From the NCBI GenBank assembly GCA_023247445.1, contig JAHFGL010000008.1, forward strand, positions 13,774-77,773: 64,000 nt of DNA, written 5' to 3'. Source of the stretch: Candidatus Omnitrophota bacterium (GTDB lineage: Bacteria; Omnitrophota; Gorgyraeia; Zapsychrales; Zapsychraceae). This document shows, one piece after another, positions 25,519-52,769 of the stretch (its first letter is position 1; every line of letters starts with the position of its first letter). Both the position numbers and the translations under genes were made by a program. The notes below the pieces were generated by a model. That model saw only the letters and a program-made list of their open reading frames with translations, ran no database searches and was not told the origin of the DNA.

Positions 25519-26630
25519 GTAAAAATCCTTATATAAAAATAGCCAATCGTTTAGTCGGCCAAGACTATCCACCTTTAGTGATCGCTGAAATCGGCATTAA
25601 CCATGAAGGGAGTCTTAAAAAAGCGCTTCAAATGGTCGATGACGCGAAAAAAGCCGAATGTGAGTGCGTTAAGTTTCAATGTCATGTCATTGAAGATGAA
25701 ATGATTCCGGCGGCTAAATCCGTTATTCCAGGAAATGCTAAAGAAAGTATTTGGAATATTATGGAAAGATGCGCCCTTAGCGAAAAAGAGGAGGCGCATT
25801 TAAAAAAATACGTTGAATCGAAAGGCATGATTTATCTTTCAACGCCGTTTTCGCGCTCGGCGGCGGAAAGGTTAGAAAAAATGAAAGTAATAGCGTATAA
25901 AATTGGTTCCGGCGAATGTAATAATTATCCTTTAATCGAGCATATAGCTTCCTACGGCAAGCTCGTCATTCTTAGCACGGGTATGAATGATCTCTCAACT
26001 ATAACGCCAGCGGTTAAAATCTTAAGAAAGATGAGAGTTCCCTTTGCTTTAATGCATTGTACGTCCATGTATCCCACTCCTTACGCGAAGGTACGCTTGG
26101 GCGCTGTTTCCGAATTGGCTAAAACCTTTCCGGATGCCGTTCTTGGCTTAAGCGATCATTCATTGGGAATTTATACATGTCTTGCCTCGGTGGTTTTGGG
26201 CGCTAGTATTCTTGAGAAACATTTCACCTCCGATAAGACTTGGTCTGGCCCGGATGTTCCTATTTCCATAGATCCATTGGAGCTTAAAGAATTAATCGAG
26301 GGATCAAAAGCTATTCACCAGGCTCTGGGCGGGCAAAAAGATATTTTAGCTCAGGAACAGCCGACGATTGATTTTGCCTATGCGTGTGTTGTCTCAACGC
26401 GAGACATCCGCCAAGCAGAAGCGTTAACGAGGGAAAATATTTGGGTAAAACGTCCTGGAACGGGAGAGATTAAGGCAAAAGACTTTAATAATCTTTTAGG
26501 AAAAAAAGTCAACGTTAGTATTAAAAAAAATGAACAGTTAAAGTGGAATCAAATAATCCATGGTAAATATAGTTTAAACTTTAAGGAGGAAGAGTCCAAT
26601 GCGAATTTATCTCGCGCAATTAACACATGA
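25515..26630 (+). CDS. N-acylneuraminate/nonulosonate synthase (NeuB family) with C-terminal SAF domain
   Basis: IAEIGINHEGS signature. 371 aa, consistent with a TIM barrel plus antifreeze-like domain. Confidence 0.8.
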   Translation: MSKNPYIKIANRLVGQDYPPLVIAEIGINHEGSLKKALQMVDDAKKAECECVKFQCHVIEDEMIPAAKSVIPGNAKESIWNIMERCALSEKEEAHLKKYVESKGMIYLSTPFSRSAAERLEKMKVIAYKIGSGECNNYPLIEHIASYGKLVILSTGMNDLSTITPAVKILRKMRVPFALMHCTSMYPTPYAKVRLGAVSELAKTFPDAVLGLSDHSLGIYTCLASVVLGASILEKHFTSDKTWSGPDVPISIDPLELKELIEGSKAIHQALGGQKDILAQEQPTIDFAYACVVSTRDIRQAEALTRENIWVKRPGTGEIKAKDFNNLLGKKVNVSIKKNEQLKWNQIIHGKYSLNFKEEESNANLSRAINT

Positions 26631-28644
26631 AAGAAATAGCGTGTTTCAAAATCATTGCTTTCCTCTCGCGGTTGGTTTTATCGGATCGTATCTTAAAAAA
26701 GAGTTTGGAGAACAGGTTGACATTGAACTCTTTAAATCGACTAAAGATTTAAACGAGGCCTTTGCTAGGGCAACCCCGGATGTGCTTATGTTAAGTAGTT
26801 ATATGTGGAACTATAATCTTACTCTTTCTTACACCGAAGAAGCCCGGGCGCAATGTAAAGATTTATTGATTATCGTTGGTGGTCCTCATATTAGTCTCGA
26901 TCCGGCAGAACGCCAAAGATTTTTAAGAGAACACCCAGCCATTGATGCGTATGTACTATTTGAAGGGGAGAGGGTAGCTAAAGAAATCATAACCACGTTT
27001 CTAAACACCAAAAGCAGGGAAGCTGTTAAAAGACTGGCCGTAACACAGTCGGCAATTATTGCTGTTAATGCCAATGAAGATGTCGCTAAGACTTCAGGCG
27101 ATGTTGACCGCTTCAGCCGGATAGGCCTTAAAGGCTCCTCGCTTTCTTTGAATGATATTCCTTCTCCGTATTTAAATGGTATGTTTGATAAGTTCTTTAA
27201 AGATGCCGAGATCCCTTTGATTGAAACCAACCGTGGGTGTCCCTTTACCTGCTCGTTTTGCCAGCAAGGCGGTGAGTATTATACCAAGGTCGTTCATTTT
27301 GACGTTGAGCGTGTACGTCAAGAGATCATGTATATAGCAGACAAAATTGATAAAGAAAAAATTGATGCCTACGTGTTGGAGGTTGCGGATCCGAACTTTG
27401 GGATGTTTGAACGCGACCGCGAGATATGCGCCGCCATTAGAGAAGCTCAGGAGAAAACAGGTTATCCTAAATATGTCGGGTGTTCAACTGGAAAGAATAA
27501 GGCCGATGTCATTATCGAGAACACTTCTTTACTGCAGTTAGGGACCATTCAATTAAGAAGCGCCATGCAATCTTTGCACACAGAAACCTTGGATGCCATT
27601 AAGCGTAAAAATATAAAAGTAGACGCCTATTATCAGATTCAGAAAGATATGGATGCTAAGGGACTCGAAAATAATACCGACATGATGCTCGGGTTGCCTT
27701 TGGAAACCAAGAGCTCGCATTTTAAAGGGATTTTTGATTTGATTGATGCTGGCATCAGAGAATTTTCCTGCGTGCAAACAATAGTTCTTCCAGGGATAGA
27801 AATGGAACTTAAATCCTACAAGGAAAAATATGGCATAAAGACAAAATACCGTTTTATTCCAGAAGGGATCGGCCAGTACAACATTCTCGGTAAAGAGAAA
27901 AATGTCGCTGAAATAGAAGAAATCATTGTTCAGACAAACACGATGTCTTACGAGGATTATTTTGAATGCCGAAAATTGCATTTATTGTTAATGATATTCC
28001 ATAACACGAGATTATTGTCGACTGTTTATAAATACCTGGAAGACTTAAATATTAAAAAATCCGAAATCGTAAAACGCCTGTACGAATATTATCCTCAAAA
28101 CCAAACGCTTAAGAGTTTGCTTGAGGTTTTTAAACAGGACACAGAGAGCGAATTGTTCAATCAGTTAAGTGATATCAATTTTGATTCTCCCAATAATGAG
28201 GCTGTTTCTTACAATAAGATATTTAAACACTTATCCATTGTCTGGTTTGAACATAAAGATATTATCCTCGAGACTTTGACAACCGTTTTGTTGGATATTT
28301 TAGGCCCAGAAAATGCTTCTGAAATAGATGAATTGGTCGAAATTATCAGAATCGGAATGGTTGATCCCTTCCAATATCTTGAAAGGCGAGTGATTCAAAT
28401 TCAATCCAAGAAGCTGCAACGTGTTTTATCATCGCAGCTTGAATATTATCCCTCAGATAGGCAATTAACGACGATACGGATCATTAATAATTTGTATAAA
28501 ACACCTGAGGATAGGATCAATAAAATGGTTTATAAGCTAAGGCCGGTTAATTTGATGCTAAAGATTAGCTTGACCAAAAGTGAAGAGAGCTCGAACTCGA
28601 TGGCAACCTCGATGGCAACAGAGACCTCCGAAGCAGCTTATTAA
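26599..28644 (+). CDS. B12-binding radical SAM enzyme (class B-like) with a long C-terminal extension
   Basis: N-terminal cobalamin-binding-like domain, RGCPFTCSFCQQG cluster motif. 681 aa. AAGGAGGA RBS. Confidence 0.7.
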   Translation: MRIYLAQLTHERNSVFQNHCFPLAVGFIGSYLKKEFGEQVDIELFKSTKDLNEAFARATPDVLMLSSYMWNYNLTLSYTEEARAQCKDLLIIVGGPHISLDPAERQRFLREHPAIDAYVLFEGERVAKEIITTFLNTKSREAVKRLAVTQSAIIAVNANEDVAKTSGDVDRFSRIGLKGSSLSLNDIPSPYLNGMFDKFFKDAEIPLIETNRGCPFTCSFCQQGGEYYTKVVHFDVERVRQEIMYIADKIDKEKIDAYVLEVADPNFGMFERDREICAAIREAQEKTGYPKYVGCSTGKNKADVIIENTSLLQLGTIQLRSAMQSLHTETLDAIKRKNIKVDAYYQIQKDMDAKGLENNTDMMLGLPLETKSSHFKGIFDLIDAGIREFSCVQTIVLPGIEMELKSYKEKYGIKTKYRFIPEGIGQYNILGKEKNVAEIEEIIVQTNTMSYEDYFECRKLHLLLMIFHNTRLLSTVYKYLEDLNIKKSEIVKRLYEYYPQNQTLKSLLEVFKQDTESELFNQLSDINFDSPNNEAVSYNKIFKHLSIVWFEHKDIILETLTTVLLDILGPENASEIDELVEIIRIGMVDPFQYLERRVIQIQSKKLQRVLSSQLEYYPSDRQLTTIRIINNLYKTPEDRINKMVYKLRPVNLMLKISLTKSEESSNSMATSMATETSEAAY

Positions 28645-29801
28645 TGGGAGAATTAGAAACGATGCCTAAAAAAATACTTTTTATTACGAGTACTCGCGCC
28701 GATTTTGGCAAACTGAAACCGCTGATGAGAAAAGTTGAACAATCATCCGCGTTTGAATGTTATATCTTTGTTACGGGGATGCACATGCTTTCTCGTTACG
28801 GCTCAACGATTAATGAAATCAAAAAAAGTAATTTTAAGAATATTTTTCCCTATATGAACCAGATGGACAATAACGGTTTTGATATGGATATCGTTTTAGC
28901 AAATACCATCCAAGGTATCGGTCATTATAGTCGAGAATATAAGCCGGATATGATTGTTGTTCATGGGGATCGTGTGGAGGCTCTCGCTGGTGCTATTGTG
29001 GGAACATTAAATAATATCCTTGTGGCGCATATTGAGGGAGGTGAGGTATCCGGTACGGTGGATGAACTGATCCGTCACGCGGTCAGTAAATTGGCTCATC
29101 TTCATTTTGTCGCTAATGATGAAGCGCGTATGCGCTTGATTCAGATGGGAGAGACCAAGGATTCGATTTTCGTGATAGGCTCACCGGATATCGACGTAAT
29201 GCTTTCCGAGAGCCTGCCTACTTTACAGGAAGTTAAACAAAGATATGATATCCCGTTTGAGGAATATTTTATTTTTTCCTATCATCCCGTGACAACAGCT
29301 CTCCATAAATTGATACAGGATATTGATGTTGTGGTAGACACGATAAAAGATTCCAGACTCAATTTTATCATCATTTATCCCAACAATGACCGTGGTTCGG
29401 ATATTATTCTGGAATCGTTGAAACGTTTAGAAAACAACATGCGTTTTAAGCTTTTTTCTTCTCTGCGCTTTGAATATTTTTTAACGCTTCTTAAACACGC
29501 TAAGGCTATCGTGGGCAACTCCAGTGCTGGAATAAGGGAAGCGCCGGTTTACGGAGTCCCAACCATCAATATAGGCAATAGACAAATCAATCGATACCAG
29601 TATCCATCCATCGTGGATGTCCGCGAGAATAAGAGTGATATCCTTGGCGCTTTAAGAAATCTTCCTACGGGGATAAAACCGTCTTTGCATTTTGGCGACG
29701 GTAATAGCGCTGAAGCTTTTTTACAATACTTGCAAGATCCTGGATTTTGGTCAAGATCGTGCCAAAAACAATTCCAAAATTTTTCTGATGTTGTTTTATA
29801 G
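28644..29801 (+). CDS. neuC: UDP-N-acetylglucosamine 2-epimerase, hydrolysing (NeuC family)
   Basis: KILFITSTRADFGKL, GDRVEALAGAIVG and HIEGGEVSGTVDE. 385 aa. Confidence 0.8.
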   Translation: MGELETMPKKILFITSTRADFGKLKPLMRKVEQSSAFECYIFVTGMHMLSRYGSTINEIKKSNFKNIFPYMNQMDNNGFDMDIVLANTIQGIGHYSREYKPDMIVVHGDRVEALAGAIVGTLNNILVAHIEGGEVSGTVDELIRHAVSKLAHLHFVANDEARMRLIQMGETKDSIFVIGSPDIDVMLSESLPTLQEVKQRYDIPFEEYFIFSYHPVTTALHKLIQDIDVVVDTIKDSRLNFIIIYPNNDRGSDIILESLKRLENNMRFKLFSSLRFEYFLTLLKHAKAIVGNSSAGIREAPVYGVPTINIGNRQINRYQYPSIVDVRENKSDILGALRNLPTGIKPSLHFGDGNSAEAFLQYLQDPGFWSRSCQKQFQNFSDVVL

Positions 29802-29811
29802 AAAAAGTTAA

Positions 29812-30312
29812 ATGACTGCTCTTAAACATAAAAGAAAACGATTAGAATTTAAGAATATTGATTTAATCGTTTATGATTTTGACGGAGTCATGACCGACAA
29901 CCGTGTTTTGGTTTTTGATGACGGCCAAGAGGCTGTCTGGTGTAACCGCGCTGATGGATTGGCGATCAGTTTAATTAAAAAGGCAGGGATTCCCCAGATT
30001 ATTCTTTCCATGGAAGAGAACCCGGTTGTTGAGATCAGGGCCCATAAGCTCGGAATTGATGTTTTTTACGCAATAGAGGATAAAAAGACGGTGTTAATGG
30101 ATTATTGCCGCAAGAGTAATTATGATTTAAAGAAGGTCGTTTATGTTGGCAACGACATTAATGATTTGGAGGCTATGAAATTAGTTGGCTACGCGTTTGC
30201 GCCGCAAGACGCTAATATCCAAGTCAAGAATATAGCCATGATAGTTACAGAGAAAAAAGGCGGAGATGGTGTTATAAAAGAAATTTATGATCAATTTTTG
30301 AACCTTTCATAG
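29812..30312 (+). CDS. KdsC-family HAD phosphatase (ulosonate-phosphate phosphatase)
   Basis: IDLIVYDFDGVMTDN and GNDINDL. 166 aa. Confidence 0.75.
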   Translation: MTALKHKRKRLEFKNIDLIVYDFDGVMTDNRVLVFDDGQEAVWCNRADGLAISLIKKAGIPQIILSMEENPVVEIRAHKLGIDVFYAIEDKKTVLMDYCRKSNYDLKKVVYVGNDINDLEAMKLVGYAFAPQDANIQVKNIAMIVTEKKGGDGVIKEIYDQFLNLS

Positions 30313-30321
30313 GAGGAGACC

Positions 30322-31170
30322 ATGAGTATTTTTGTCATTGCTGAAATAGGGATTAATCATAATGGCGATGTTAATATAGCCAGACAGCTTATTGATGTCG
30401 CTAAAGATGCTGGTGCCGATGCGGTTAAATTCCAGAAAAGAACGATTGATTTAGTTTATTCTAAAGAATTCTTGGATTCACCGCGCGAAAGTCCATGGGG
30501 AATAACTCAGCGTCATCAAAAGGAAGGTCTCGAATTTGGCAAAAAAGGATACGACCAAATTGACGCTTATTGCAAAGAAAAGGATATCATCTGGTTTGCT
30601 TCCACCTGGGATCTAGAAAGCCAGAAGTTTCTTAGGCAGTATAAGCTTGCTTATAATAAAATTGCTTCCGCTATGCTGACTTACCGTGAGTTGTTGGAAA
30701 TGGTCGCTGAGGAGAGAAAAGACACATTTATTTCAACGGGCATGAGCGGGGAAAAAGAGATTGAAACTGCCATCAAGATATTTAGAAACGCGGGATGCCC
30801 GTTCGAATTGATGCACTGTGTTTCGACGTATCCTATGAACGATGAGGACGCTAATTTAAACTGCATTAAAACATTGCAGGAACGATTTCAATGTAAGGTT
30901 GGATACAGCGGCCATGAAGTCGGTTTAGCCATCTCTTATGCGGCGGCTGCGTTAGGGATTACTTCGCTGGAACGCCATATCACCTTAAGCCGGGCAATGT
31001 ATGGTTCCGATCAGGCGGCATCGGTTGAGCCGGCTGGTTTCCGGCAGTTAGTTGGCGCGGTAAGAAAAATTGAGAAGGCTCTAGGAAATGGGGAAATTAG
31101 CATTCACGAGAAAGAAATTCCTATCGCCCAGAAGTTAAGGGCGCATATCCCTTTAATGGTTAGTAAATAA
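30322..31170 (+). CDS. NeuB-family synthase paralogue lacking the SAF domain
   Basis: IAEIGINHNGD signature. 282 aa, TIM barrel only. Confidence 0.7.
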   Translation: MSIFVIAEIGINHNGDVNIARQLIDVAKDAGADAVKFQKRTIDLVYSKEFLDSPRESPWGITQRHQKEGLEFGKKGYDQIDAYCKEKDIIWFASTWDLESQKFLRQYKLAYNKIASAMLTYRELLEMVAEERKDTFISTGMSGEKEIETAIKIFRNAGCPFELMHCVSTYPMNDEDANLNCIKTLQERFQCKVGYSGHEVGLAISYAAAALGITSLERHITLSRAMYGSDQAASVEPAGFRQLVGAVRKIEKALGNGEISIHEKEIPIAQKLRAHIPLMVSK

Positions 31171-31184
31171 CTTAGAGATTTAAG

Positions 31185-31874
31185 ATGATAGAGATCAATA
31201 AAAAAAGACATGTTGTGGTGATTCCCGCACGCAGAGGGAGCAAAGGGTTTCCATTTAAGAACCGTCTTTTATTTGATGAGACGGCTGATTTTATCGATCG
31301 ACACGGCTGGTTTGATCAGGTGATTGTTTCGACTGATGATGAAATCGTTGAAGAAAAGACCATGGCCAGAGGGTATGTAATCCATGCTCGTCCGCAAGAG
31401 CTTAGCGGCGATGCCGTTTCCATCAAAAGGGTAATGCAATCTGTTATCCATGACTTGAAATTATCAAAAGATACTATCATGTGGTTGTTTTATTTGTCTA
31501 TTGTGTATAAAAATATATCAGATTTTCTAAAGGCAAAACAGATTATAGAAGAAGGGAAAGTCTTGAGCATATGTGGTTTTGTTCCGGCTAAATCGCACCC
31601 CTTCACATGTTGGTCTTATGACCAGAGGAATGGTATATTAAAGCAGTATATTAATAACGATATCTACCGCCGGCAGGATCGTCCCCGGGCTTGGACGTAT
31701 CACCATTACATCAGCTGTTTTAAAACCGCAGAAATAGAGCACCTTAACAGCGAACTTATTAATAATAAGACGTATCCCTTTTTTCTACAAAAGCAGAGGA
31801 TAGATCAACTGCTGGAAATCGATACTCCCGAGGAATATGAACAATGGAAGTCATTAGCTCAAAAAATCGTTTAA
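31185..31874 (+). CDS. Acylneuraminate cytidylyltransferase family (NeuA-like CMP-nonulosonate synthetase)
   Basis: VVIPARRGSKGFPFKN. 229 aa. Confidence 0.75.
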   Translation: MIEINKKRHVVVIPARRGSKGFPFKNRLLFDETADFIDRHGWFDQVIVSTDDEIVEEKTMARGYVIHARPQELSGDAVSIKRVMQSVIHDLKLSKDTIMWLFYLSIVYKNISDFLKAKQIIEEGKVLSICGFVPAKSHPFTCWSYDQRNGILKQYINNDIYRRQDRPRAWTYHHYISCFKTAEIEHLNSELINNKTYPFFLQKQRIDQLLEIDTPEEYEQWKSLAQKIV

Positions 31875-33816: not shown

Positions 33817-33826
33817 GGATAGAAAA

Positions 33827-39592: not shown

Positions 39593-39769
39593 ATGGCAGA
39601 AGAGCTATTGAAAGGAAATTTTAAAGTTAAAAATCCCGTTAAGGTAGAGAAGCAAGCAAAAAGTGAGCCAGTTCACGAACAGCTTCGTAAAAGGGCGCTT
39701 GCTTCCCTTGGTGGGAGTATGGTTTACATGGAACGAAAAAATCTCACTTGGGACGGAGAAAAAGGTTAA
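39593..39769 (+). CDS. Small Lys-rich hypothetical protein (58 aa), translationally coupled
   Basis: GGGGGTTGAT RBS before ATG 39593. Its stop TAA overlaps the ATG of the next gene (TAATG). Confidence 0.3.
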   Translation: MAEELLKGNFKVKNPVKVEKQAKSEPVHEQLRKRALASLGGSMVYMERKNLTWDGEKG

Positions 39770-43131: not shown

Positions 43132-43940
43132 ATGTTCTCGGAGAAAAAACTATAACTTCGTATAATATCAGGAAAATAATTCTTGAACAATCAAAGCGTG
43201 CTAATGTTGGTCATATTGGCTCGGCTTTATCTATCGTAGATATTATAGCTGTTTTATATGAGAATATTCTTAGTATTGCTTATCCCGAGGATCTTGAACG
43301 AGATCGTTTTGTTTTATCTAAAGGCCATGCGGCTTTAGCCCTTTACGCGGCTTTTTTTTTAAAAGGATGGTTAACACAAAAAGAGCTGGATAGTTATTGC
43401 GCAGATGGTGGTTGTTTAGGAGTTCATCCAGAGCATTTTCTAAAAGGGGTTGATTTTTCTACCGGCTCCCTTGGGCAGGGTTTGTCGATGGGAGCCGGAG
43501 CCGCTTTAGCGGCCTCTATTAAAAAGAGTTCCTACCGCACGTTTGTCTTGATGAGTGATGCCGAATGCAATGAAGGATCTGTATGGGAGGCTATTATGTT
43601 CGCTGCACAACATAAATTATCTAATCTTATTGTTATCATCGATTACAATCGGCAACAGGCGTTTGGGTACACGAAAGATGTTCTAAATCTTGATCCTTTA
43701 AATAAACGCTGGGAGGCCTTTGGCTGGGATGTACGGCAGGTGGATGGGCATGATGTTTCTGAAATCATGCGAACGATACAAGGGCTCTCTTTGCAAAGTG
43801 GATCGCCCCATGTCATTATTGCTAATACAATTTTTGGTAAAGGGGTTTCCTATATGGAAAATAAAATTAAATGGCATTATTGGCCGATGTCTGATCAGGA
43901 GTATCAATTAGCTTTACAAGAGATCAAGGCTGTAAAATGA
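43128..43940 (+). CDS. Transketolase N-terminal subunit (second copy)
   Basis: FSTGSLGQGLSMGAGAA and DAECNEGSVWEA. 270 aa. Confidence 0.8.
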   Translation: MNVLGEKTITSYNIRKIILEQSKRANVGHIGSALSIVDIIAVLYENILSIAYPEDLERDRFVLSKGHAALALYAAFFLKGWLTQKELDSYCADGGCLGVHPEHFLKGVDFSTGSLGQGLSMGAGAALAASIKKSSYRTFVLMSDAECNEGSVWEAIMFAAQHKLSNLIVIIDYNRQQAFGYTKDVLNLDPLNKRWEAFGWDVRQVDGHDVSEIMRTIQGLSLQSGSPHVIIANTIFGKGVSYMENKIKWHYWPMSDQEYQLALQEIKAVK

Positions 43941-44899
43941 GAAACATATTTATTGAGACATTGATTAAATTGGCCGAAAAAGATAACCGTATTTTATTGT
44001 TAACCGCTGATTTAGGTTATACGGTTATTGAACCTTTCGCAGAGAAGTTCCCACAAAGGTTTTTCAATGTTGGGGTCGCTGAACAAAATATGGTTGGGAT
44101 GTCTACCGGCTTAGCGCAAGCAGGTTTTATTCCGTTTTTGTATTCTATCAATAATTTTGTTTCTATCCGGCCATATGAATTTATTCGTAACGGTCCTATT
44201 CTCCATCAGTTGCCGGTGCGCATCATTGGAGTAGGCGGAGGGTTTGATTACGGATCAGCAGGTGTTACTCATTATGGTTTGGAGGATATTGGTCTTATGC
44301 GTCTTCAAAAAGGCATCGGTGTCGTTGTCCCAGCTGACCGTAATCAGACACAGGCAGCACTTTTAAAAACATGGGATTTACCGGGACCGGTATATTATCG
44401 GCTTGGTAAAGGCAATAAAAATTCTATTGATGGTCTTAATGGAAGGTTTGATTTTGGGGGTCTTCAGCATATCCGCCAGGGAAATGATTTTGTTTTTATT
44501 TCTATAGGGAGTATCACGCAAGAAGTTGTCAGTGCAGCGGATCAACTAGAACAAAAAGGCATTTCGGCTTCGATCGTTGTTGTGTCCAGTTTTAATCCTT
44601 CGCCAACGACGGATTTGATTAAAATTCTTAAAAAATTTCCGTTAGCCATTACAGTAGAGGATCATTATGTGACTGGCGGAGTCGGCTCTTTTGTTGCCGA
44701 AGTAGTTGCCGAAAATAACATCTCTTGCCAGATTAAACGCTGTGCAGTCGATACGCTTATTCCCAATGTGACAGGCAGCAGGGAATTTATGAATAGTCAC
44801 TATGGTATCTCAGCAGCGAAATTGGTCGAAATAGCCTGGCATTGTTTAAGAAATGATAAATTCACATTAAGTAAGGCTGATCTTTTTTTAGAGAAATGA
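43937..44899 (+). CDS. Transketolase C-terminal subunit (second copy)
   Basis: VGVAEQNMVGMSTGLA. 320 aa. Confidence 0.8.
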   Translation: MRNIFIETLIKLAEKDNRILLLTADLGYTVIEPFAEKFPQRFFNVGVAEQNMVGMSTGLAQAGFIPFLYSINNFVSIRPYEFIRNGPILHQLPVRIIGVGGGFDYGSAGVTHYGLEDIGLMRLQKGIGVVVPADRNQTQAALLKTWDLPGPVYYRLGKGNKNSIDGLNGRFDFGGLQHIRQGNDFVFISIGSITQEVVSAADQLEQKGISASIVVVSSFNPSPTTDLIKILKKFPLAITVEDHYVTGGVGSFVAEVVAENNISCQIKRCAVDTLIPNVTGSREFMNSHYGISAAKLVEIAWHCLRNDKFTLSKADLFLEK

Positions 44900-45618
44900 A
44901 AGAATCTTTTGTCTCGATTATACTTCCAGTATATAATCAGGCTGACCACATAAGTGCCGTGATTGAGTGCTACAAAAATGCCCTCTCAAAAATCGCCGTA
45001 CCTAATGAAATGCTTTTGGTTGTTAACGGGTGTCGTGATAATTCCTTAGAGATTTGCCAAAATCTACAAAAAAAATATGACGCCTTAAAAGTTATTCATA
45101 GTGAGAAGGGTGGCTGGGGCCGTGCCATTAAATTAGGGTTAAAAGAGGCTCAAGGTGACTTTATTTGTTATACTAATTCGGCCCGCACATCGGCTGCAGA
45201 ACTTCGGCAGGCCATACTCTATGCCTTAGATAATCCTAATGGAGTGATCAAAGCTAACCGAAAAATCCGGTATAACCTTATGAGGATGCTCGGATCTTAT
45301 TTATTCAATTTTCAATGTCGTTTTCTGTTCGATTTAACCGTTTGGGATATAAACGGTACGCCAAAAGTTTTTCCCCGCAAGTTTGATTATTTGTGCAGAC
45401 TCTCCCGTAACGATGATTTGATAGACCTTGAATTTAATTTTATTTGTAAAATGAAAAATTATCCCATGCTGGAAGTACCCATTTTTTCTTCCAAGCGCCA
45501 TGATGGACGTTCCACAACAGGATGGCATTCTGCTTTAGGAATGTATATGGGGGCTCTAGTCATGTGGCGTGCTAGCCGAAAAGGTCTTAAAGAATATGAA
45601 AGGACACTTGACGAATAA
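44896..45618 (+). CDS. Family 2 glycosyltransferase (GT-A)
   Basis: VSIILPVYNQADHI. 240 aa. Confidence 0.7.
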   Translation: MKESFVSIILPVYNQADHISAVIECYKNALSKIAVPNEMLLVVNGCRDNSLEICQNLQKKYDALKVIHSEKGGWGRAIKLGLKEAQGDFICYTNSARTSAAELRQAILYALDNPNGVIKANRKIRYNLMRMLGSYLFNFQCRFLFDLTVWDINGTPKVFPRKFDYLCRLSRNDDLIDLEFNFICKMKNYPMLEVPIFSSKRHDGRSTTGWHSALGMYMGALVMWRASRKGLKEYERTLDE

Positions 45619-46789
45619 AGAGCAAATGTGGGCTCAACATAACGAGGAATGGCGCGATCCTGCGCAGATTATCAGTCAATGGGAAGATGCCCATCAGTTA
45701 GATCGGAGGTTGCTGGATTATAACATCAAAGGTCAATGGTGGGCTATTTTAAATAGATTGAAGATATATCTTCTGGTCTCCCGCGAATATGAACATTTGA
45801 TGCTGGCAATAGGTGCTAAGGCGCATGGTCCAGAAATATCTTACATGCGCATACCACATCCTTCTGGCATTGTGGTTAATCACAGAAGAGATTTAATTTA
45901 TATTGCCAGCACACGCAACCCCAACCAAATTTTTGAGATGGGGTTAAGTAAGGGACTTGCTGATAGAAAAGATATTCTCAGAAAAAGGACACGGAAGCCA
46001 ATCGGATATAATGTCATGGTCCCTTTAAGGACTTTCTTTTATCCAGGAAGTTTATATATTCATGACCTTGCCATCATTGGGAATAATCTGTACGCTAACG
46101 CTGTTGGACACAATGCGGTTGTTCGGCTTTCTTTATCTTTCGATGGAAGATATGAATATGTGTGGTGGCCAGTATGTATGGAAAATGGAAAAGGCCCCAT
46201 TACTGAAGCGAATTATATTCAATTGAATTCTATTGCTGCGGGACAAACGATTCAAGATTCTTTTTTTTCGGCTTCGGCGGATTCTATCTCTCAGCGTAGA
46301 CCAGGGCATATAAATTTTCCCGTGAACAAGCGGGGTGTCGTATTTTCGGGAAAAACGCGTAAACCTATCTGTTATGGGCTGACTCGGCCGCATTCAGCGC
46401 GCTGCTATGACGGGAAAATATGGGTTGATAACAGCGGTTACGGAGAATTTGGATACATCGAAAAAGAAAAATTTGTGTCTATCGTATCACTTCCGGGTTG
46501 GACACGGGGTCTTTATATAGAGGGGGGAGTTGCCTTTGTCGGTGCCTCGAAAGTGATTCCGCGATTTTACCGCTATGCCCCGGGACTTGATATTGCCAGG
46601 AGTCGCTGTGGAATATATGCCATAGAGTTAAAGACAGGGAAGATTTTGGGGAGTATACAATGGCCGCATGGGAATCAAATCTTTGCTGTTGAAGGGATTT
46701 CAGATAGATTTTGCCATGGGTTCGTCCATCAGTATTTGTCCTGCAGATCTTCTGTGCAAATAAAAAATTTATTTTATGCGTTCAAATAA
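45596..46789 (+). CDS. Hypothetical protein, possibly beta-propeller-like
   Basis: 397 aa. Repeated G-x-hydrophobic strand-like segments. Start ATG 45596, in frame with the track GTG at 45569. Confidence 0.3.
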   Translation: MKGHLTNKEQMWAQHNEEWRDPAQIISQWEDAHQLDRRLLDYNIKGQWWAILNRLKIYLLVSREYEHLMLAIGAKAHGPEISYMRIPHPSGIVVNHRRDLIYIASTRNPNQIFEMGLSKGLADRKDILRKRTRKPIGYNVMVPLRTFFYPGSLYIHDLAIIGNNLYANAVGHNAVVRLSLSFDGRYEYVWWPVCMENGKGPITEANYIQLNSIAAGQTIQDSFFSASADSISQRRPGHINFPVNKRGVVFSGKTRKPICYGLTRPHSARCYDGKIWVDNSGYGEFGYIEKEKFVSIVSLPGWTRGLYIEGGVAFVGASKVIPRFYRYAPGLDIARSRCGIYAIELKTGKILGSIQWPHGNQIFAVEGISDRFCHGFVHQYLSCRSSVQIKNLFYAFK

Positions 46790-46800
46790 AGGAGTGATAG

Positions 46801-47727
46801 ATGACTGAAAAATTTAAACTTCTCATGTTAGGGGCTATGTACGAAAACGGAGGTAACACAACACATCGATTTTTGGATGGACATCCTGAAATGTTTGTTT
46901 ATCCATTCGAATCCCAGCTCGGGACGCGGTTTGTTATTGACAGTTTATCTTCTTTGTTTCCATTAAAATACCGCTGGCCAGTTTTTCCGCTGGAAGGGAG
47001 TCCCTATGAAGATTATAAGTTGATTATCGATGAAGAAGGAAAAGTCCGCACGCGCACTGCGCATGTGAGTAAATTCCGTCATATGCCATTCGAGTTATCT
47101 GATGATGAGCGCTGCTTGATATATCAAAAATATATCCAGCGTCTGGGACGCTCACGCGCGCACAATGTACAAGCATTTTTTCAAAGTATTTTTGATGCCT
47201 GGAAAAATTATAAACGGACCGGGAAAGAAAAATTTTATGTTGGGTATAGTCCCATTTTAGTCGTTGACGCCGGGAAGATTCTGGAGGAATTGCCCGGAGC
47301 GCATTTTCTTCATGTCGTACGTAATCCCTGGTCAGCTTATGCCGATACCAAAAAAAGACCTGTTCCTTTGTCTTTAGAAAACTATATTTTCTGTTGGAAT
47401 ATAAATCAGTATTTCGCTTTACTCTGCCAAAAAAAATACCCTCGTCGCATGCATATCCTACGTTTGGAAGATATATTGCAAAATCCTTACAAAGAGCTGG
47501 GGACGTTATGTGAGAAATTAGGCCTCAAAAAAAGCAATTCTTTAGAAATTCCCAGTTGGAATGGCCAAGAATTAGAAGAAATTTATCCATGGGGAACCAT
47601 CCGTAAGGCGACGCCGAAAGCTAATAAGGAAACAGCGAGGGAGCTCTCTAAAGAAGAACAGCAAGAAATTCGGGAAAGGACATGGCAGTATCTTAAAGAA
47701 TACCGCTATGATAAATTTTTGGCCTAA
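46801..47727 (+). CDS. Putative sulfotransferase
   Basis: LGAMYENGGNTTH is a PAPS 5'-phosphate (PSB) loop-like motif, and HVVRNPWSAYAD is RNP-type 3'-PB-like. 308 aa. Confidence 0.4.
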   Translation: MTEKFKLLMLGAMYENGGNTTHRFLDGHPEMFVYPFESQLGTRFVIDSLSSLFPLKYRWPVFPLEGSPYEDYKLIIDEEGKVRTRTAHVSKFRHMPFELSDDERCLIYQKYIQRLGRSRAHNVQAFFQSIFDAWKNYKRTGKEKFYVGYSPILVVDAGKILEELPGAHFLHVVRNPWSAYADTKKRPVPLSLENYIFCWNINQYFALLCQKKYPRRMHILRLEDILQNPYKELGTLCEKLGLKKSNSLEIPSWNGQELEEIYPWGTIRKATPKANKETARELSKEEQQEIRERTWQYLKEYRYDKFLA

Positions 47728-47742
47728 AAATAAGGCTGACTT

Positions 47743-48726
47743 ATGAAAAAAATTGTGTTAACCGGCGGGACAGGATTCATCGGGGCTAATTTGGCACGAC
47801 GCCTTTTGCGTGATGGACATCAAGTCCATCTCTTTGTGCGTAAAGGATGCCAAAATTGGCGCATCGATGAAATTCGCAAGGATATTGTTTTATATGAATT
47901 GGACTTTAATGATCAAGTCCAGTTAGAGAAAACTCTCAAACAAGTCAGCCCGAATTGGATATTTCATTTAGCCGCTTACGGGGCCTATTCGGTGCAAGAT
48001 AATTTGCGCCAGATGATAAGTACGAATATCCTTGCAACGGTCAATTTAGTAGAAGCCGCTTTAAAAATTGGATTTCAAGCGTTCATCAATATCGGTTCAT
48101 CATCCGAATACGGCTGGAAAGATTATCCCCCAACGGAAACGGAATGGTTAGATCCCAATAGTCATTATGCATTAACCAAGGCTAGCTCGACGATGTTTTG
48201 CCGATACACAGCTATAGCTAGGAAGGCCAATATAATAACGCTTCGCCCCTATGCTGTATTTGGTCCTTATGAAGATTTTGGTCGATTTATGCCGACTCTT
48301 ATTGTTAAAGCTTTGGATGGTTATTTGCCGCATTTGGTAAATCCACGCGTCGCCCGTGATTTTCTTTATGTGGATGATTTTGTGGAAGCTTGTATCTTGG
48401 CCGCGACCCATATCAATCAAGAGCCCGGTTCTATTTATAATTGCGGCACAGGAATTCAAACAACTATTCAAGAGGTTGTTGAATTAGCCAAGCGCTTACT
48501 GCCTATTATCGATGAACCAAAGTGGGGATCTATGGAAAACAGAATTTGGGATACGCAAGTCTGGGTCAGCGACACTCAGCGAATACAAGAAGTTTTAGGT
48601 TGGCGCCCGCGTTATAATTTAGAGGAAGGATTTAAATGTATGATTTCTTGGTTTAGGGATAATCCATCATTTTTGAAGATTTATAAAAACATTATTAGCC
48701 CCGAAAGGATCCAGCAAGAAGCATGA
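47743..48726 (+). CDS. NAD-dependent epimerase/dehydratase (SDR)
   Basis: IVLTGGTGFIGANLARRLL. 327 aa. Confidence 0.8.
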   Translation: MKKIVLTGGTGFIGANLARRLLRDGHQVHLFVRKGCQNWRIDEIRKDIVLYELDFNDQVQLEKTLKQVSPNWIFHLAAYGAYSVQDNLRQMISTNILATVNLVEAALKIGFQAFINIGSSSEYGWKDYPPTETEWLDPNSHYALTKASSTMFCRYTAIARKANIITLRPYAVFGPYEDFGRFMPTLIVKALDGYLPHLVNPRVARDFLYVDDFVEACILAATHINQEPGSIYNCGTGIQTTIQEVVELAKRLLPIIDEPKWGSMENRIWDTQVWVSDTQRIQEVLGWRPRYNLEEGFKCMISWFRDNPSFLKIYKNIISPERIQQEA

Positions 48727-50948
48727 AAGATTTAAAGACATTTATTCGGCAAAAATTTTCGCCTTTAACATGGGTTGGTTTAATTATTATCGGCTATGCT
48801 GTCCTCTTTTTCCGCAATGTTATGCAACCGAATTGGGTATTTGTCGGTGACACGCTCAATAATTTTGGTGTCTATTATTATCAATATGCGGGATTTGCCA
48901 GGGGTGAATATCCGCTATGGAATCCACTGGTCAGATCCGGCCAGCCGGAGATCATCCATCAAGGTATGCAGTTGGCAAATCCCATTTCTAATATGGTGAT
49001 GCTTATTTCTGTTTTAAGTGGAATTCAAAGCATAATTTTTTCTTACGCCATCTGCATCTTTGTTTATATTGCACTCTATGTCTCAGGGGTTTATTTGCTG
49101 GTTTCCTGCTGGACGAATAACCGTTATGCCGGGGTTTTTGCGTCTTTTTTAGCGATAGGTTCTTCCACGGTTTTCTATGGTACGTACCACGTGTCCTTTA
49201 TTCTTATGGTTCATGCGGTCCCATGGATATTTTACTCTTTTATGATGTATTTTCGAACGTTTCGATTTAAATATTTACTTATTTTTATTTTAGCGAGCAT
49301 CTCGATGTTATATTCCTATGAATTTTTTCTGGGGGGCGCATATATTCTAATGCTTTCAGTCGCGCTAATGTTTTTTTATTATAAAAAACTACCAGGTGTT
49401 GTTGACACATTTAAAAAAATTCCACTTCGGCATATAGTGATTGCGGCGGGTATTTTGGTTATCGCCATACTTCCCAATTTAATTATATTTACGCAGCTAA
49501 GAGAGAAATTTCTGGTTTTTTCAAGGTTAAGCAATGTTAATCTAACGGAACAATACACCTTAACGTTCCAGAATTTGTTTCATGGCAGACATTTTTCATT
49601 CCCGATTATTTTCTCCGGATTTTGGGCGTCGCTATTTACCGGGGTCTTTAGAAATACTTTTGAATCTCTGCGGCATTACGTTGGGCCTTTAACTTTTCCT
49701 TTCATTCTTCTCGCGTTATTCTCTAAAAAAAAAATTGTCTGGTGCCTAGTCTTATCGGGGATTCTTATTGCGATGCTGGCCGGAAATATTTTTCCCGCTA
49801 ATCTTCTTCTAGAACTACCCATTTTTTCTCTTATAGGCAATGCCCATTTTTTGTTACAATTTTTTGTTCTCGTTTTAATTGTTATTGCTGGTTTTGGTTT
49901 TGATGTCCTGATTCAGGAAAAGGATAAAAAGGTATTTAACGCCGCTTCTATCTTGTTAATCCTTATATCATTTATAATACTCTTTTCACGATTTGTTTCT
50001 TCTCCTTATAATGATGGGATTTTATGGATAACAATTGTATCAATTTTAGGAAGTCTTTTGCTTGTCAATTTTTGTCCATCAAGATTTTTTATCCATTCTT
50101 TTTTTGCTTTAGCCTTTATAACTACTTTGCTATCGGTGTTTTGGATTTTTCATCTGCCGATGTCGGGCTATATAAGCCGTAACCCTTCAACGGCTATTGT
50201 TTCCAACCGTTCGGATTATTCTCTGCAATTCCAATACGAAAGACCGCGGGATATCGAAACGATTAAACTATCCAATGAATCCGCATCTTTTGGATACGAC
50301 GAATTTTCTTCTTATGTAACTTTAAAAGATAATTCGTATAAAACAGCAAAAGGAGTTGAGGGGGGGCTTTCCACTTACCCGGTCATGCAATCCTATTATT
50401 TGTTTTTATTTCTGCCATGGCATGAAGGAATCATGAGTAAAAAATTTTTCTTTTTCCCACGGTCCTATATCTCCGATAACCCAAAACAGATGATCGCATT
50501 CCGGGATGTCCGTGTTCTTTCTGCCATGCTTGCTCAAGGCATAGGAATCGTCGATAAACTTAAGAATACAGATATTTCTCTTGGGCCTTTTTATCCGGAA
50601 TCTGCTGCAGGTTTGGTCAATAAGACTTTTGAAAACAAGTGGGATGTTCATGTAACCGAATATAAGGCAAATAGTCTGCGGGCTAGTGTGTCTATAAAAC
50701 AGCCTGGTCTATTTATGTATACAGACCTTTGGGATAATGGGTGGAGAGTGCGTGTGGATGGAAAAGAAGCGCCTTTGAGAAAAGTCTTTCATACATTTAA
50801 GGGTGTTGAACTGCCGGTGGGAATTCATGAAATTTTATTTTATTACAACAATCAACTTTTCTTTTTTATTATGCTTATGAATGCCACTTTCATTTTGTGT
50901 GTTTTATTGCTAATCTTTAATAGAAGAGGGCTGGAAGCAATTTCTTAA
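48723..50948 (+). CDS. Polytopic membrane protein with a C-terminal extracytoplasmic domain (YfhO/GT-C-like)
   Basis: 741 aa. At least 12 hydrophobic helices in the first ~470 aa, then a soluble domain. GEYPLWNPLVRSGQPE near the N-terminus. Confidence 0.4.
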   Translation: MKDLKTFIRQKFSPLTWVGLIIIGYAVLFFRNVMQPNWVFVGDTLNNFGVYYYQYAGFARGEYPLWNPLVRSGQPEIIHQGMQLANPISNMVMLISVLSGIQSIIFSYAICIFVYIALYVSGVYLLVSCWTNNRYAGVFASFLAIGSSTVFYGTYHVSFILMVHAVPWIFYSFMMYFRTFRFKYLLIFILASISMLYSYEFFLGGAYILMLSVALMFFYYKKLPGVVDTFKKIPLRHIVIAAGILVIAILPNLIIFTQLREKFLVFSRLSNVNLTEQYTLTFQNLFHGRHFSFPIIFSGFWASLFTGVFRNTFESLRHYVGPLTFPFILLALFSKKKIVWCLVLSGILIAMLAGNIFPANLLLELPIFSLIGNAHFLLQFFVLVLIVIAGFGFDVLIQEKDKKVFNAASILLILISFIILFSRFVSSPYNDGILWITIVSILGSLLLVNFCPSRFFIHSFFALAFITTLLSVFWIFHLPMSGYISRNPSTAIVSNRSDYSLQFQYERPRDIETIKLSNESASFGYDEFSSYVTLKDNSYKTAKGVEGGLSTYPVMQSYYLFLFLPWHEGIMSKKFFFFPRSYISDNPKQMIAFRDVRVLSAMLAQGIGIVDKLKNTDISLGPFYPESAAGLVNKTFENKWDVHVTEYKANSLRASVSIKQPGLFMYTDLWDNGWRVRVDGKEAPLRKVFHTFKGVELPVGIHEILFYYNNQLFFFIMLMNATFILCVLLLIFNRRGLEAIS

Positions 50949-51064
50949 CGAAGCACAAATTTTATATGAAAAGAATATTAGTCGCTGGTGGTTGCAGATT
51001 TTAGGTTCAAGAAAGCCAGGGGTTAAAGGTCATTTAATATTTCCATTAATATTTCAATTATTCC

Positions 51065-51093
51065 TTGACAATACTTTTGGGCACGAGTATAGT
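51065..51093 (+). promoter_or_regulatory. Sigma70-like promoter: TTGACA, 17-nt spacer, TATAGT
   Basis: Consensus -35 at 51065-51070 and -10 at 51088-51093, in the only >150-nt intergenic gap, about 40 nt upstream of the AAGGAG RBS of the 51135 gene. Confidence 0.4.
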
Positions 51094-51134
51094 ACATCTT
51101 ATATTTAATAAAAAATTTTAAAAGATAAAGGAGA

Positions 51135-52769
51135 TTGATGTTACTAATTAATCCTTGTCAAGAAAAATTCGGCGGTTTTCTCTCTCGTTATATGCAAGTC
51201 GGCATCCCAGTTGCCATAGGTATTATATGCGCCTACATGGAAAAATATGGTGTTAAAACTAAGGTTTTTGATGAGGAAATTGCAGAACTTACTCCTTCTA
51301 TCTTGAATGATCTTGTCAAAGATATGGAAAAGCCTTATGTTTTCGGCTTTACCTGTATGACCGCCCATGTTGTACGTGGTTATCAATTGACTAAAATGTT
51401 AAAAACACTTTATCCGGATTGCTATGTGATTGCCGGAGGTCTCCAGGCAACCGCTTTACCGGAAGAACCATTATCTTACGGGGTCGATTTTGTTATCCGC
51501 GGCGAAGGTGAAGAGGTCTTATTGCAGCTGTACAGGGCTATACGCGGTGATAAAGATTACACTCAGATTAAGGGGATCACCTACATGCCGGATGGTAAAG
51601 TTGTCCATAATTGTGATGCCCCGCTTATTCCTGATCTTAATTCAATTCCCATATTTCCTTACCAATATTTTGAGCACCCTAAATATGACAGAGGATTTAT
51701 GGTTTCTTCACGAGGCTGTCCATACCGCTGTAATTACTGCAGTATCCGCATGATGAATGGAACAACATACCGTTTTCTTTCTCCCGAACGTATTGTTACC
51801 GAACTGGATATTTTGATTAACAAATATGGTCAGAAACAGGTCGTGTTTTATGATGATAATTTTTGTTTCAAAAAACGTCGTGTCAAGGAAGTCTGTGATG
51901 CGATCATTAAAGCAGACCTGCATAAAAAATGCGCCTTTTCAATCCAGACCCGCGCAGACAATTTCTATCCTGATGTTGTTCCCATGATGGCTGAAGCCGG
52001 ATTTAAACATGCGGGATTTGGGATGGAAACAGGTATTGACCGGTTGCATCATATTATTAACAAAGAAGAAACCGTCCAGCAGCACCGCGATGCCGTCAAT
52101 CTGGCTAAAAAATACGGCATGACAACTGCTCTTTTTATGATTTTCGGCTTGCCAACAGAAACTCACGAAGATCGTAGGGAATCATTTAAGATCGTTGACT
52201 CCATGGGAACAACGGAATCTAAATATAATAATTTGATTCCTTATCCAGGAACACCAATGTATAAAACTTTAAGCACTAACGATCGGATTCATATTCAACC
52301 GGCTTGGGCAAATTTTATCAGTACTCTCTCGATAACGCGCAGTATTTTTGATAAGACGCCGCTTCCTTATGTTCCTGATTCAGCTTCAGAATGGGAACTT
52401 AAACGAGATATTATTTTATTTAATTTAAAAACATATTTTACTCCGCGAGTTATGTTCAGCATAGTAACCGGTAAAAAGGGGATGGGATGGACGAAGTTGC
52501 CTGCTCGTTGGTACTTGAATCCCGTGGAGCTTTATCATCTAACGAAAACCGTTTTTGCATTAATGACCAATTTGATTATTGCCGTTTTGCCTTTGTGGAT
52601 AACCGAACCTATTATGTGTGCGTTTAATCCTGTTTTAAGAAGACGTCAACGCATTCCTAATGCGCCCAAAGAAGCAGAAATTGAAGGTTGGGACGCTGTT
52701 TCCGCAGTACGTTACCGTCCTGGTCCTGTTACTCAAGTCAAAGAAAAGTCTCAACCTGCCTTAACTTAG
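51135..52769 (+). CDS. B12-binding radical SAM enzyme
   Basis: B12-binding-like N-terminal domain, RGCPYRCNYCSI cluster motif. 544 aa. Confidence 0.7.
   Translation: MMLLINPCQEKFGGFLSRYMQVGIPVAIGIICAYMEKYGVKTKVFDEEIAELTPSILNDLVKDMEKPYVFGFTCMTAHVVRGYQLTKMLKTLYPDCYVIAGGLQATALPEEPLSYGVDFVIRGEGEEVLLQLYRAIRGDKDYTQIKGITYMPDGKVVHNCDAPLIPDLNSIPIFPYQYFEHPKYDRGFMVSSRGCPYRCNYCSIRMMNGTTYRFLSPERIVTELDILINKYGQKQVVFYDDNFCFKKRRVKEVCDAIIKADLHKKCAFSIQTRADNFYPDVVPMMAEAGFKHAGFGMETGIDRLHHIINKEETVQQHRDAVNLAKKYGMTTALFMIFGLPTETHEDRRESFKIVDSMGTTESKYNNLIPYPGTPMYKTLSTNDRIHIQPAWANFISTLSITRSIFDKTPLPYVPDSASEWELKRDIILFNLKTYFTPRVMFSIVTGKKGMGWTKLPARWYLNPVELYHLTKTVFALMTNLIIAVLPLWITEPIMCAFNPVLRRRQRIPNAPKEAEIEGWDAVSAVRYRPGPVTQVKEKSQPALT

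Follow-up and report, generated by a model that had tools for sequence, protein, structure and literature searches.

Four radical SAM enzymes of separate lineages, three of them with a B12-binding domain, in a surface-glycan gene cluster of a Candidatus Omnitrophota bacterium

A stretch of 64,000 nucleotides from an uncultured Candidatus Omnitrophota bacterium (assembly GCA_023247445.1, contig JAHFGL010000008.1, positions 13,774 to 77,773 of the forward strand), referred to here as the window, was examined for its four genes of radical S-adenosylmethionine (SAM) enzymes. From the domains, motifs, homologies and gene neighbourhoods observed, we consider it fairly probable that the window represents a single, very large surface-glycan cluster with its genes on one strand and that the four genes encode intact tailoring enzymes of four lineages, each recruited together with its own pathway cassette. 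The use of cobalamin, the transfer of methyl groups, the substrates and the products of these enzymes are what we infer from these observations. The four genes, in coordinates of the window, are as follows.

26599-28644, + strand: rSAM1, a class-B enzyme of 681 amino acids with B12-binding, radical SAM and C-terminal domains, TokK/CysS/KedN5-like
40812-42392, + strand: rSAM2, a class-B-fold radical SAM protein of 526 amino acids, with an insertion after the cluster motif (about residues 218-250)
51138-52769, + strand: rSAM3, a class-B-fold radical SAM protein of 543 amino acids, with a hydrophobic C-terminal segment (residues 468-497)
19313-20386, + strand: radical SAM/SPASM enzyme of 357 amino acids (Radical_SAM 59 bits; SPASM, PF13186, 32.8 bits with a cut-off of 21.5)

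An earlier note on this DNA had described, in each of the first three open reading frames (ORFs), a B12-binding-like domain and one CxxxCxxC cluster, and both were found. The Pfam B12-binding model PF02310 (gathering score 32.1 bits) gave 51.5 bits for rSAM1, 50.6 for rSAM2 and 48.6 for rSAM3, with nearly the whole profile covered; the Radical_SAM model PF04055 (gathering score 29.5 bits) gave 31.6, 52.4 and 88.2 bits, respectively. Each protein contains exactly one CxxxCxxC, invariant in the respective family alignment: CPFTCSFC at residues 214-221 of rSAM1, CSLICKFC at 210-217 of rSAM2 and CPYRCNYC at 194-201 of rSAM3, counted from the ATG at 51138. This start was preferred as the most likely one over the TTG at 51135, since the homologues begin with MLLINP and the called product has 543 residues. 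All four radical SAM proteins are full length when compared with their homologues, with a coverage of 96-100% for the three class-B ones. The fourth ORF, which the note had named as a further radical SAM protein with extra cysteine clusters, likewise passed the thresholds of both its domains and contains CVYPCGHW and CECESNC. The DxHxxG-like motif, which belongs to the His-on B12 domain of the MetH and mutase type and which the note had proposed to look for, was absent from rSAM1, rSAM2 and rSAM3. Its absence was to be expected and is uninformative, because TokK, TsrM and OxsB bind cobalamin base-off without a histidine ligand (TokK paper).

The glycan context assumed in the note also proved real. 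When the approximately 57 ORFs of the window were scanned with Pfam and NCBIfam, nearly all matches concerned sugar nucleotides, glycosyltransferases or export. The + strand carries every sizeable ORF, the genes are closely packed or overlapping, and the GC content is about 40%. Matching sequences were also seen in the metagenome runs ERZ27296333 and SRR14366772, while none of the species-representative genomes is close.

The note had called the three class-B genes paralogues. This holds at the level of the superfamily, where profile-profile comparison still connects the three through a common fold, but they are not close paralogues: by BLASTP, rSAM1 and rSAM3 are 21% identical (E=2e-8), rSAM2 and rSAM3 are 22% identical (E=3e-18), and rSAM1 and rSAM2 did not detect each other. 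Instead of three paralogues with the same job, the three are separate old class-B subfamilies, each in its own, different conserved cassette.

rSAM1 is placed between two genes of nonulosonic acid synthesis.

25515-26630, + strand: NeuB-type nonulosonic acid synthase with a SAF domain (Pfam NeuB 243.8 bits; TIGR03569 364 bits, just below the cut-off of 399.65)
28644-29801, + strand: NeuC-type hydrolysing UDP-GlcNAc 2-epimerase (TIGR03568 415 bits, passing the cut-off of 235.9)

The start of rSAM1 overlaps NeuB by 32 nt and its stop overlaps the start of NeuC by 1 nt, an arrangement that points to translational coupling of rSAM1 between the two. When rSAM1 was compared with solved structures, TokK (7kdx) was matched with E=2.9e-44 over residues 55-474, and CysS with 7e-32; identity to ThnK of the S. 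cattleya megaplasmid was 27.7%. Its best NCBIfam model was the KedN5 methylcobalamin-dependent C-methyltransferase subfamily (NF033712, 194 bits with a cut-off of 700). TokK, ThnK, CysS and KedN5 are radical SAM C-methyltransferases that depend on cobalamin and assemble alkyl groups at unactivated carbons, and rSAM1 resembles them in its three-part layout and its length. Trp76 of TokK, which sits beneath the cobalt and is common to TokK, ThnK and CysS only, aligns to W70 of rSAM1 in the same SxYxWN context. W70 is invariant, being present in 33 of 33 members of the family alignment and in each of the 79 genome homologues that align at this position.

The C-methyl sugars predicted in the note thus gain support as far as rSAM1 is concerned (TokK, CysS and KedN5 matches, conserved Trp), while for rSAM2 and rSAM3 methylation is one option among others. 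C-methylation by rSAM1 is plausible from these likenesses, and the protein is a probable C-methyltransferase on the NeuB/NeuC branch, possibly an iterative one, as TokK and CysS are. In such a reaction, one SAM would methylate cob(I)alamin, and a second SAM would give the 5'-deoxyadenosyl radical that abstracts hydrogen from an unactivated carbon; the substrate radical would then take the methyl group from methylcobalamin. Since rSAM1 is coupled between NeuB and NeuC, its target would be a nonulosonic acid of the sialic or legionaminic type, or a 2-acetamido-hexose precursor. Unlike the TokK/KedN5 group, rSAM1 is found beside NeuB/NeuC or nucleoside diphosphate (NDP)-sugar genes and not in antibiotic clusters, and its substrate would be a free or nucleotide-linked sugar, whereas that of the TokK group is a pantetheinylated molecule.

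To survey the loci of rSAM1 relatives, one genome per species was taken, giving 80 loci; the closest species-representative relative was 51% identical. NeuB and NeuC were adjacent to the rSAM1 relative in a Gammaproteobacteria metagenome-assembled genome (MAG), an Ignavibacteriales MAG, a Taylorina symbiont and an Arcobacter MAG, so that these neighbours were kept in four of the five named relatives at 39-51% identity. NeuB lay within 10 kb in 32 of 83 loci of the family (the 80 distinct loci of the genome scan and three duplicates of one). Several Acidobacteria showed the order NeuB, radical SAM gene, NeuC, nucleotidyltransferase, CMP (cytidine monophosphate) synthetase. Members of the family in Streptomyces had no sugar genes nearby.

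Two further observations concern this TokK-like family. At least 338 relatives of rSAM1 (26-36% identity) were found on IMG/VR contigs classed as viral, some of them longer than 100 kb. Among the 80 viral-class contigs examined (L179-L258), the gene co-occurred with dehydratase-type genes of the short-chain dehydrogenase/reductase (SDR) family in 33, with DegT aminotransferases in 15 and with NeuB in only 2; these are either phage-borne class-B genes for sugar tailoring or misclassified contigs. On a plasmid of Azospirillum oryzae KACC 14407 (NZ_CP054615.1, 222324-241961; locus L177), four genes annotated as radical SAM, one of them 30% identical to rSAM1, stand together with two carbamoyltransferases, a GNAT gene and a methyltransferase. 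This looks like another radical-SAM-rich tailoring cluster; no functional information was gained from it.

rSAM2 belongs to a cassette with two other genes, and a cytidylyltransferase gene follows it.

39593-39769, + strand: conserved small protein of 58 amino acids, the first gene of the cassette (motifs LLKGNF and GGSMVYMER..LTWDG)
39769-40791, + strand: MptE-like (DUF115/Maf-type) protein of 340 amino acids, the upstream partner of rSAM2 (PF01973, 59.3 bits)
42409-43131, + strand: CMP-nonulosonate synthetase-like (PseF-like) cytidylyltransferase, 3' of rSAM2 (CTP_transf_3, 96 bits)

The cytidylyltransferase scored 132 bits on the PseF model (cut-off 205.7), and the MptE-like protein matched the PseD domain with 49.6 bits and archaeal MptE (8sd5) with E=5e-5. 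The metagenome scan for rSAM2 gave 414 relatives, of which the best 80 were analysed for neighbours. Among the 120 best matches listed, the family is 62-89% identical over its full length, with values as low as 56% for orthologues from metagenomes. Orthologues were seen in Leptospira ryugenii, Omnitrophica, Spirochaetales, Candidatus Uabimicrobium, Planctobacterium marinum, Elusimicrobia and Deltaproteobacteria; Planctomycetes, Gammaproteobacteria and metagenomes are also represented, and none was found in the viral or plasmid collections searched. The insertion after the cluster motif is family-specific and highly conserved.

The neighbourhood of rSAM2 was kept across these groups. Of the 68 loci long enough to show it, 67 had the MptE-like gene immediately 5' of rSAM2 in the same orientation, and a CMP-sugar-acid cytidylyltransferase lay immediately 3' in 28 of 60. 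When the 20 long loci (at least 6 kb on each side) were considered, a CMP synthetase (within 8 kb) was present in 17, NeuB in 16, NeuC in 13 and a DegT aminotransferase in 10, which is a gene set of the legionaminic type. In Planctobacterium marinum (AP027272.1, near 3.75 Mb), the cassette is located inside a flagellin glycosylation island, with NeuB, a PglD-like acetyltransferase, a full-length Maf gene, a flagellin gene and fleQ as neighbours.

Taken by analogy, rSAM2, the small protein and the MptE-like protein would act together in a radical modification of a cytidylylated nonulosonic acid, and the reaction could be methylation, epimerisation or rearrangement. Fom3, which acts on a CMP-activated phosphonate, and GenK and GenD1, which act on aminoglycoside sugars, are precedents for class-B chemistry on cytidylylated or sugar substrates. 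rSAM2 has a cytidylyltransferase alongside, an enzyme of the kind on which Fom3 depends. An obligate MptE-like partner and a small protein accompany rSAM2 but are lacking from the systems of Fom3, GenK and GenD1. No solved structure of these three enzymes was among the matches from the structure library, and no NCBIfam model of them scored. Fom3 and GenK are listed as class-B methylases in supplementary Figure S1 of the TokK paper. As for the MptE-like protein, PF01973 is common to it, to the Maf/PseD flagellin nonulosonic-acid transferases and to the archaeal MptE pyrophosphokinase, and it may catalyse either sugar or pyrophosphate transfer. It differs from Maf/PseD in its length (340 amino acids compared with 600-1200), in lacking the Maf N-terminal domain and in being paired with a class-B radical SAM gene.

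rSAM3 is accompanied by a larger set of genes, not all of them nearby.

48723-50948, + strand: YfhO-like GT-C membrane glycosyltransferase, directly 5' of rSAM3 (Pfam)
9837-15846, + strand: block of SDR, CTP_transf_like+PfkB (HldE-like), SDR, DegT and DegT genes (Pfam, NCBIfam, tblastn)
43128-45618, + strand: second split transketolase pair (43128-44899) and a small glycosyltransferase of the GT2 type (Pfam)
51065-51093, + strand: sigma-70-like promoter match, TTGACA-17-TATAGT, 11 of 12 positions (consensus match only)

The promoter match falls within the 189 nt that separate rSAM3 from the preceding gene; no other intergenic gap of notable size occurs near the radical SAM genes. Orthologues of rSAM3 (54-83% identity) were found in Rokubacteria, Elusimicrobia, Nitrospirae and Rhodospirillales; no viral relative was found in the collection searched. 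In all five rSAM3 loci (the window and four genomes) a GT-C protein, YfhO-like or PMT_2, was present, often immediately 5'. The four other loci also have a thiamine diphosphate (ThDP) enzyme pair of the E1/transketolase type, usually a small GT2 gene and often a further class-B radical SAM gene. The block 9837-15846 is 35 kb upstream of rSAM3 in the window; its orthologues (48-65% identity by tblastn) were found in three of the four other rSAM3 genomes, the Elusimicrobia locus being the exception. Its HldE-like protein (11015-12547, + strand) has a reversed domain order, with the nucleotidyltransferase N-terminal and the PfkB kinase C-terminal, and the rSAM3 loci of Nitrospirae and Rokubacteria contain orthologues 49-51% identical to it.

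The hydrophobic segment is unique to rSAM3 among the three class-B proteins, and positions within it are conserved across the family (hydropathy, alignment); a membrane tether is probable for this protein. At the membrane, rSAM3 would perform a radical reaction on an amino sugar, which would then be passed to the GT-C transferase; the reaction could be methylation or an AprD4-like dehydration. The module as a whole (nucleotidyltransferase/kinase, two SDRs, two aminotransferases, ThDP pair, small GT2 and GT-C) would build and export a modified amino sugar. Related loci also hold class-B subfamilies that are not orthologous to the three of the window, at 12042-13829 of the related contig L176 (595 amino acids), 12721-14514 of L092 and 19645-21198 of L173 (597 and 517 amino acids, respectively), and 11656-13692 of L174 (678 amino acids). 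In L176, the closest relative of the block of the window, the extra 595-residue class-B gene separates the RmlD-like gene from the FkbM gene; the window lacks a class-B gene at this place, which suggests modular gain and loss of such genes.

The SPASM enzyme, finally, has a split enzyme directly upstream.

17528-19299, + strand: split transketolase-like ThDP enzyme in two ORFs, ending 13 nt 5' of the SPASM gene (Pfam, NCBIfam)

The cluster motif of the SPASM enzyme is CNMACTYC, with the two further cysteine motifs following it. Its C-terminal part has six cysteines (C267, C281, C285, C329, C331 and C335); the canonical SPASM pattern has seven, so that this protein is one short. Its best matches were weak and generic, namely a tungsten-cofactor maturase model (96 bits, cut-off 380) and NifB, SkfB and PqqE at about E=1e-4. 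Relatives of this enzyme were sampled among the loci retrieved for the other radical SAM genes. A homologue of 31% identity was present in the Nitrospirae rSAM3 locus (L092), and L176 had the same gene order as the window: SDR, nucleotidyltransferase/kinase, SDR, DegT, DegT, unknown, APH-like kinase, transketolase N, transketolase C, SPASM enzyme and RmlD-like reductase. Like the SPASM/twitch enzymes anSME, PqqE and SkfB, the protein has a radical SAM core and a SPASM domain; it has no peptide substrate gene and is coupled to a split transketolase instead. BtrN is the sugar-oxidising example among SPASM/twitch enzymes, and it was not recovered among the matches of the protein. Plausibly, and this is a guess, the SPASM enzyme acts with the upstream split transketolase to give a branched or oxidised sugar. 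This one glycan cluster contains two distinct transketolase-like ThDP enzymes in split form (17528-19299 and 43128-44899, both on the + strand), and related loci have E1_dh/transketolase pairs in their place. The presence of such pairs is suggestive of two-carbon branched-chain sugars with chemistry of the aldgarose or yersiniose type.

Several observations weigh against the explanation of four tailoring enzymes with their own cassettes, or against parts of it. None of the four radical SAM enzymes reached any curated NCBIfam cut-off, and therefore function cannot be transferred by orthology. For rSAM1, the active-site residue Trp215 of TokK aligns to Q223, and the position is Gln, Glu or Asp in nearly all homologues and Trp in one; the handling of the substrate, or the pocket, therefore differs from that of TokK. 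No nonulosonate genes lay within 10 kb of the rSAM1 relative in a Deltaproteobacteria MAG (45% identity, L005), and many of the relatives that are 30-36% identical adjoin NDP-hexose genes (nucleotidyltransferase, 4,6-dehydratase) instead. For rSAM3, the split transketolase and GT2 of the window are distant from, or non-orthologous to, the ThDP pairs and GT2s of the other loci (E1_dh compared with Transketolase_N; 24-26% identity for the C-terminal subunit and 22% for GT2). Neither genes for cobalamin synthesis or uptake (Pfam and NCBIfam scans) nor a cobalamin riboswitch or any other Rfam element were found within the window. To these must be added the matches to AprD4. By sequence, AprD4 (6fd2) was the best match of rSAM3 among solved structures (E=6.8e-18) and the only one of rSAM2 below E=0.001 (E=1.9e-6). 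When the AlphaFold2 model of rSAM3 (pLDDT 84.5) was searched with Foldseek, AprD4 came top (1.3e-21, TM-score 0.75 on the target), with TsrM, MgmA, CysS, OxsB and TokK close behind. The model of rSAM2 (pLDDT 89.3) has a class-B architecture; here TsrM was top (9e-23), followed by AprD4 and then MgmA, OxsB, TokK and CysS, each at about 16% identity, and AprD4 had the highest TM-score (0.64/0.73). The fold need not mean binding: in AprD4 and ArsL, Rossmann-like domains are present but no cobalamin is bound (2026 review of B12-dependent radical SAM enzymes).

These matches form the ground of the most serious rival, which we nevertheless hold to be rather unlikely. It states that rSAM3, and possibly rSAM2, are cobalamin-independent enzymes of the AprD4 type, in which the N-terminal domain is structural and the 5'-deoxyadenosyl radical directly brings about dehydration of a sugar 1,2-diol, with an SDR completing the deoxygenation, or else epimerisation or oxidation. 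AprD4 is a sugar 1,2-diol dehydratase that binds no cobalamin (2026 review); its substrate, in apramycin biosynthesis, is an amino sugar, and there are many SDR genes around rSAM2 and rSAM3. AprD4 also has the layout of a Rossmann-like N-terminal domain and a barrel. However, its identity to rSAM2 and rSAM3 is only 16-20%, and the AprD4 equivalog (NF033070, cut-off 500) gave 85 bits for rSAM3, 32 for rSAM1 and 29 for rSAM2, over the barrel region only. In contrast, the N-terminal domains of rSAM2 and rSAM3 pass the B12-binding Pfam model and are aligned to the models of the cobalamin-dependent families BchE, BzaD, HpnR and KedN5, which span this domain. The residue aligned to Trp76 of TokK, in the loop under the corrin, is invariant within each family (W70 in rSAM1, T72 in rSAM2, A76-H77 in rSAM3), and so is a GG motif (G94-G95, G96-G97 and G100-G101, respectively). 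As to the fold, Foldseek ranked cobalamin-binding and AprD4-like structures nearly equally for both models. The N-terminal alignments together with the invariant loop and GG motif lend indirect support to the use of cobalamin by rSAM2 and rSAM3.

It was also considered whether the rSAM2 cassette is a peptide-modifying system, similar to those for ribosomally synthesized and post-translationally modified peptides (RiPPs) or for cofactors, in which the small protein would be the methylated or cross-linked substrate and the sugar genes would be mere neighbours. The small protein invites this thought. It has no Pfam family, and an ORF bearing its strongly conserved C-terminal motif, GGSMV[YF][VM]ER..L.W, precedes the MptE-like gene in 54 of 60 rSAM2 loci. 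The family, of 59 representative clusters, is nearly all stand-alone and about 55-85 amino acids long; no fusion to an MptE-like or radical SAM protein was seen in it, the few longer matches being weak and apparently spurious. rSAM2 also gave weak matches to the RiPP C-methyltransferase models TIGR03975 (72 bits) and ApyD (63 bits), but these are far under the cut-offs of 282 and 750. Moreover, the small protein is conserved at both ends across the loci of the family, unlike a typical leader/core precursor. The cassette has no peptidase, transporter or recognition-element gene, and its company is that of the CMP synthetase, NeuB and NeuC in 13-17 of the 20 long loci and, in P. marinum, of flagellin glycosylation. 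A peptide-modifying role is hence very improbable.

That the enzymes are class-B enzymes of another kind, such as a BchE-like cyclase, HpnJ or HpnR, or a lipid or tRNA methylthiolation enzyme, which are merely located in a glycan locus, is highly improbable. The best NCBIfam names point that way, namely BchE (TIGR02026) for rSAM3 and HpnJ for rSAM2, and some homologues are labelled 'anaerobic Mg-protoporphyrin cyclase'; rSAM3 has its membrane-type segment, and one related locus holds an LPG_synthase_TM gene. But the scores are three- to six-fold under the equivalog cut-offs: on BchE (cut-off 481), rSAM3 gave 165 bits, rSAM2 76.5 and rSAM1 43, and on HpnJ and HpnR (cut-offs 578 and 650), the best were those on HpnJ, 120.5 bits for rSAM3 and 93 for rSAM2. 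On the MiaB/RimO family (cut-off 251), rSAM3 gave 31 bits. Orthology to BchE or MiaB, which the earlier note had named as evidence to the contrary, is excluded by these values. In every independent genome examined, the neighbours were sugar-nucleotide and glycosyltransferase genes, and never tetrapyrrole or hopanoid (hpn) genes. Lastly, the idea that the three genes are recent in-locus duplicates, that is, true paralogues of redundant function, can be practically dismissed, for in spite of their common domain order and their position within one 64-kb locus, it is contradicted by the BLASTP comparison (at most 22% mutual identity, one pair undetectable) and by the 54-89% identity of each to orthologues in other phyla with different conserved neighbours.

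The other genes of the window fit a surface-glycan cluster in their predicted functions. There are two NeuB synthases, one NeuC epimerase, a HAD protein resembling KDN-9-phosphate phosphatase, four cytidylyltransferases of the CMP-sugar-acid type, numerous SDR dehydratases or epimerases, two DegT aminotransferases and the two split transketolases. Tailoring genes comprise a carbamoyltransferase, a sulfotransferase and FkbM-type methyltransferases, and transfer and export are represented by GT2 and GT4 transferases, the YfhO-like GT-C protein, a Wzy_C protein and an ABC exporter. The following features may be singled out.

33827-35650, + strand: carbamoyltransferase
45569-46789, + strand: DUF4915 protein
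46801-47727, + strand: sulfotransferase
29812-31874, + strand: second ulosonic-acid branch, with the KDN-9-phosphate-phosphatase-like HAD protein (99.8 bits), a short NeuB and a divergent cytidylyltransferase

From the first three of these genes, the glycan or glycans made here would contain both carbamoylated and sulfated sugars. The short NeuB of the second branch has 282 amino acids and lacks the SAF domain, and in its predicted functions the branch resembles a phosphorylated KDN-type route. Five large ORFs of 393-651 amino acids on the + strand (7936-9891, 22497-23750, 36512-37693, 37695-39578 and 62426-63886) gave no match in a local copy of Pfam. For one of these, 37695-39578, the precomputed annotation label is PF27878 PFTS_polysacc.

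When the full-text literature was searched, no relevant paper was found that ties radical SAM or B12 to nonulosonic (legionaminic, sialic) acids, flagellin glycosylation, DUF115 or O-antigen, and the words sugar, glycan, polysaccharide and sialic do not appear in the 2026 review cited above. As a class, these enzymes are well known; what is new is their predicted use on nonulosonate and surface-glycan pathways, together with the partners (small protein and MptE-like protein). To our knowledge, few class-B radical SAM enzymes have been characterised, and the tailoring of nonulosonic acids that we know of (acylations, O-methylation and amidino formation) is all polar chemistry. The lead is open to direct testing: a complete genome record exists for Planctobacterium marinum, whose flagellin glycosylation island contains the rSAM2 cassette, and candidate substrates such as CMP-Neu5Ac and CMP-Leg5Ac7Ac can be prepared.

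On flagella, capsules and lipopolysaccharide, which they decorate, nonulosonic acids (sialic, legionaminic and pseudaminic) influence immune recognition, phage attachment and motility. That two B12-type radical SAM families are locked into nonulosonate cassettes in many phyla, one of them at 56-89% identity, indicates unexplored radical chemistry on these sugars. Tentatively, the rSAM2 cassette may be a three-component, phylum-spanning system for radical C-methylation, C-C rearrangement or epimerisation of CMP-legionaminic or CMP-sialic-type sugars, which would give rise to a new family of nonulosonic acids on flagella or other surface glycans; on the NeuB/NeuC branch, a further and independent C-alkylation would come from rSAM1.

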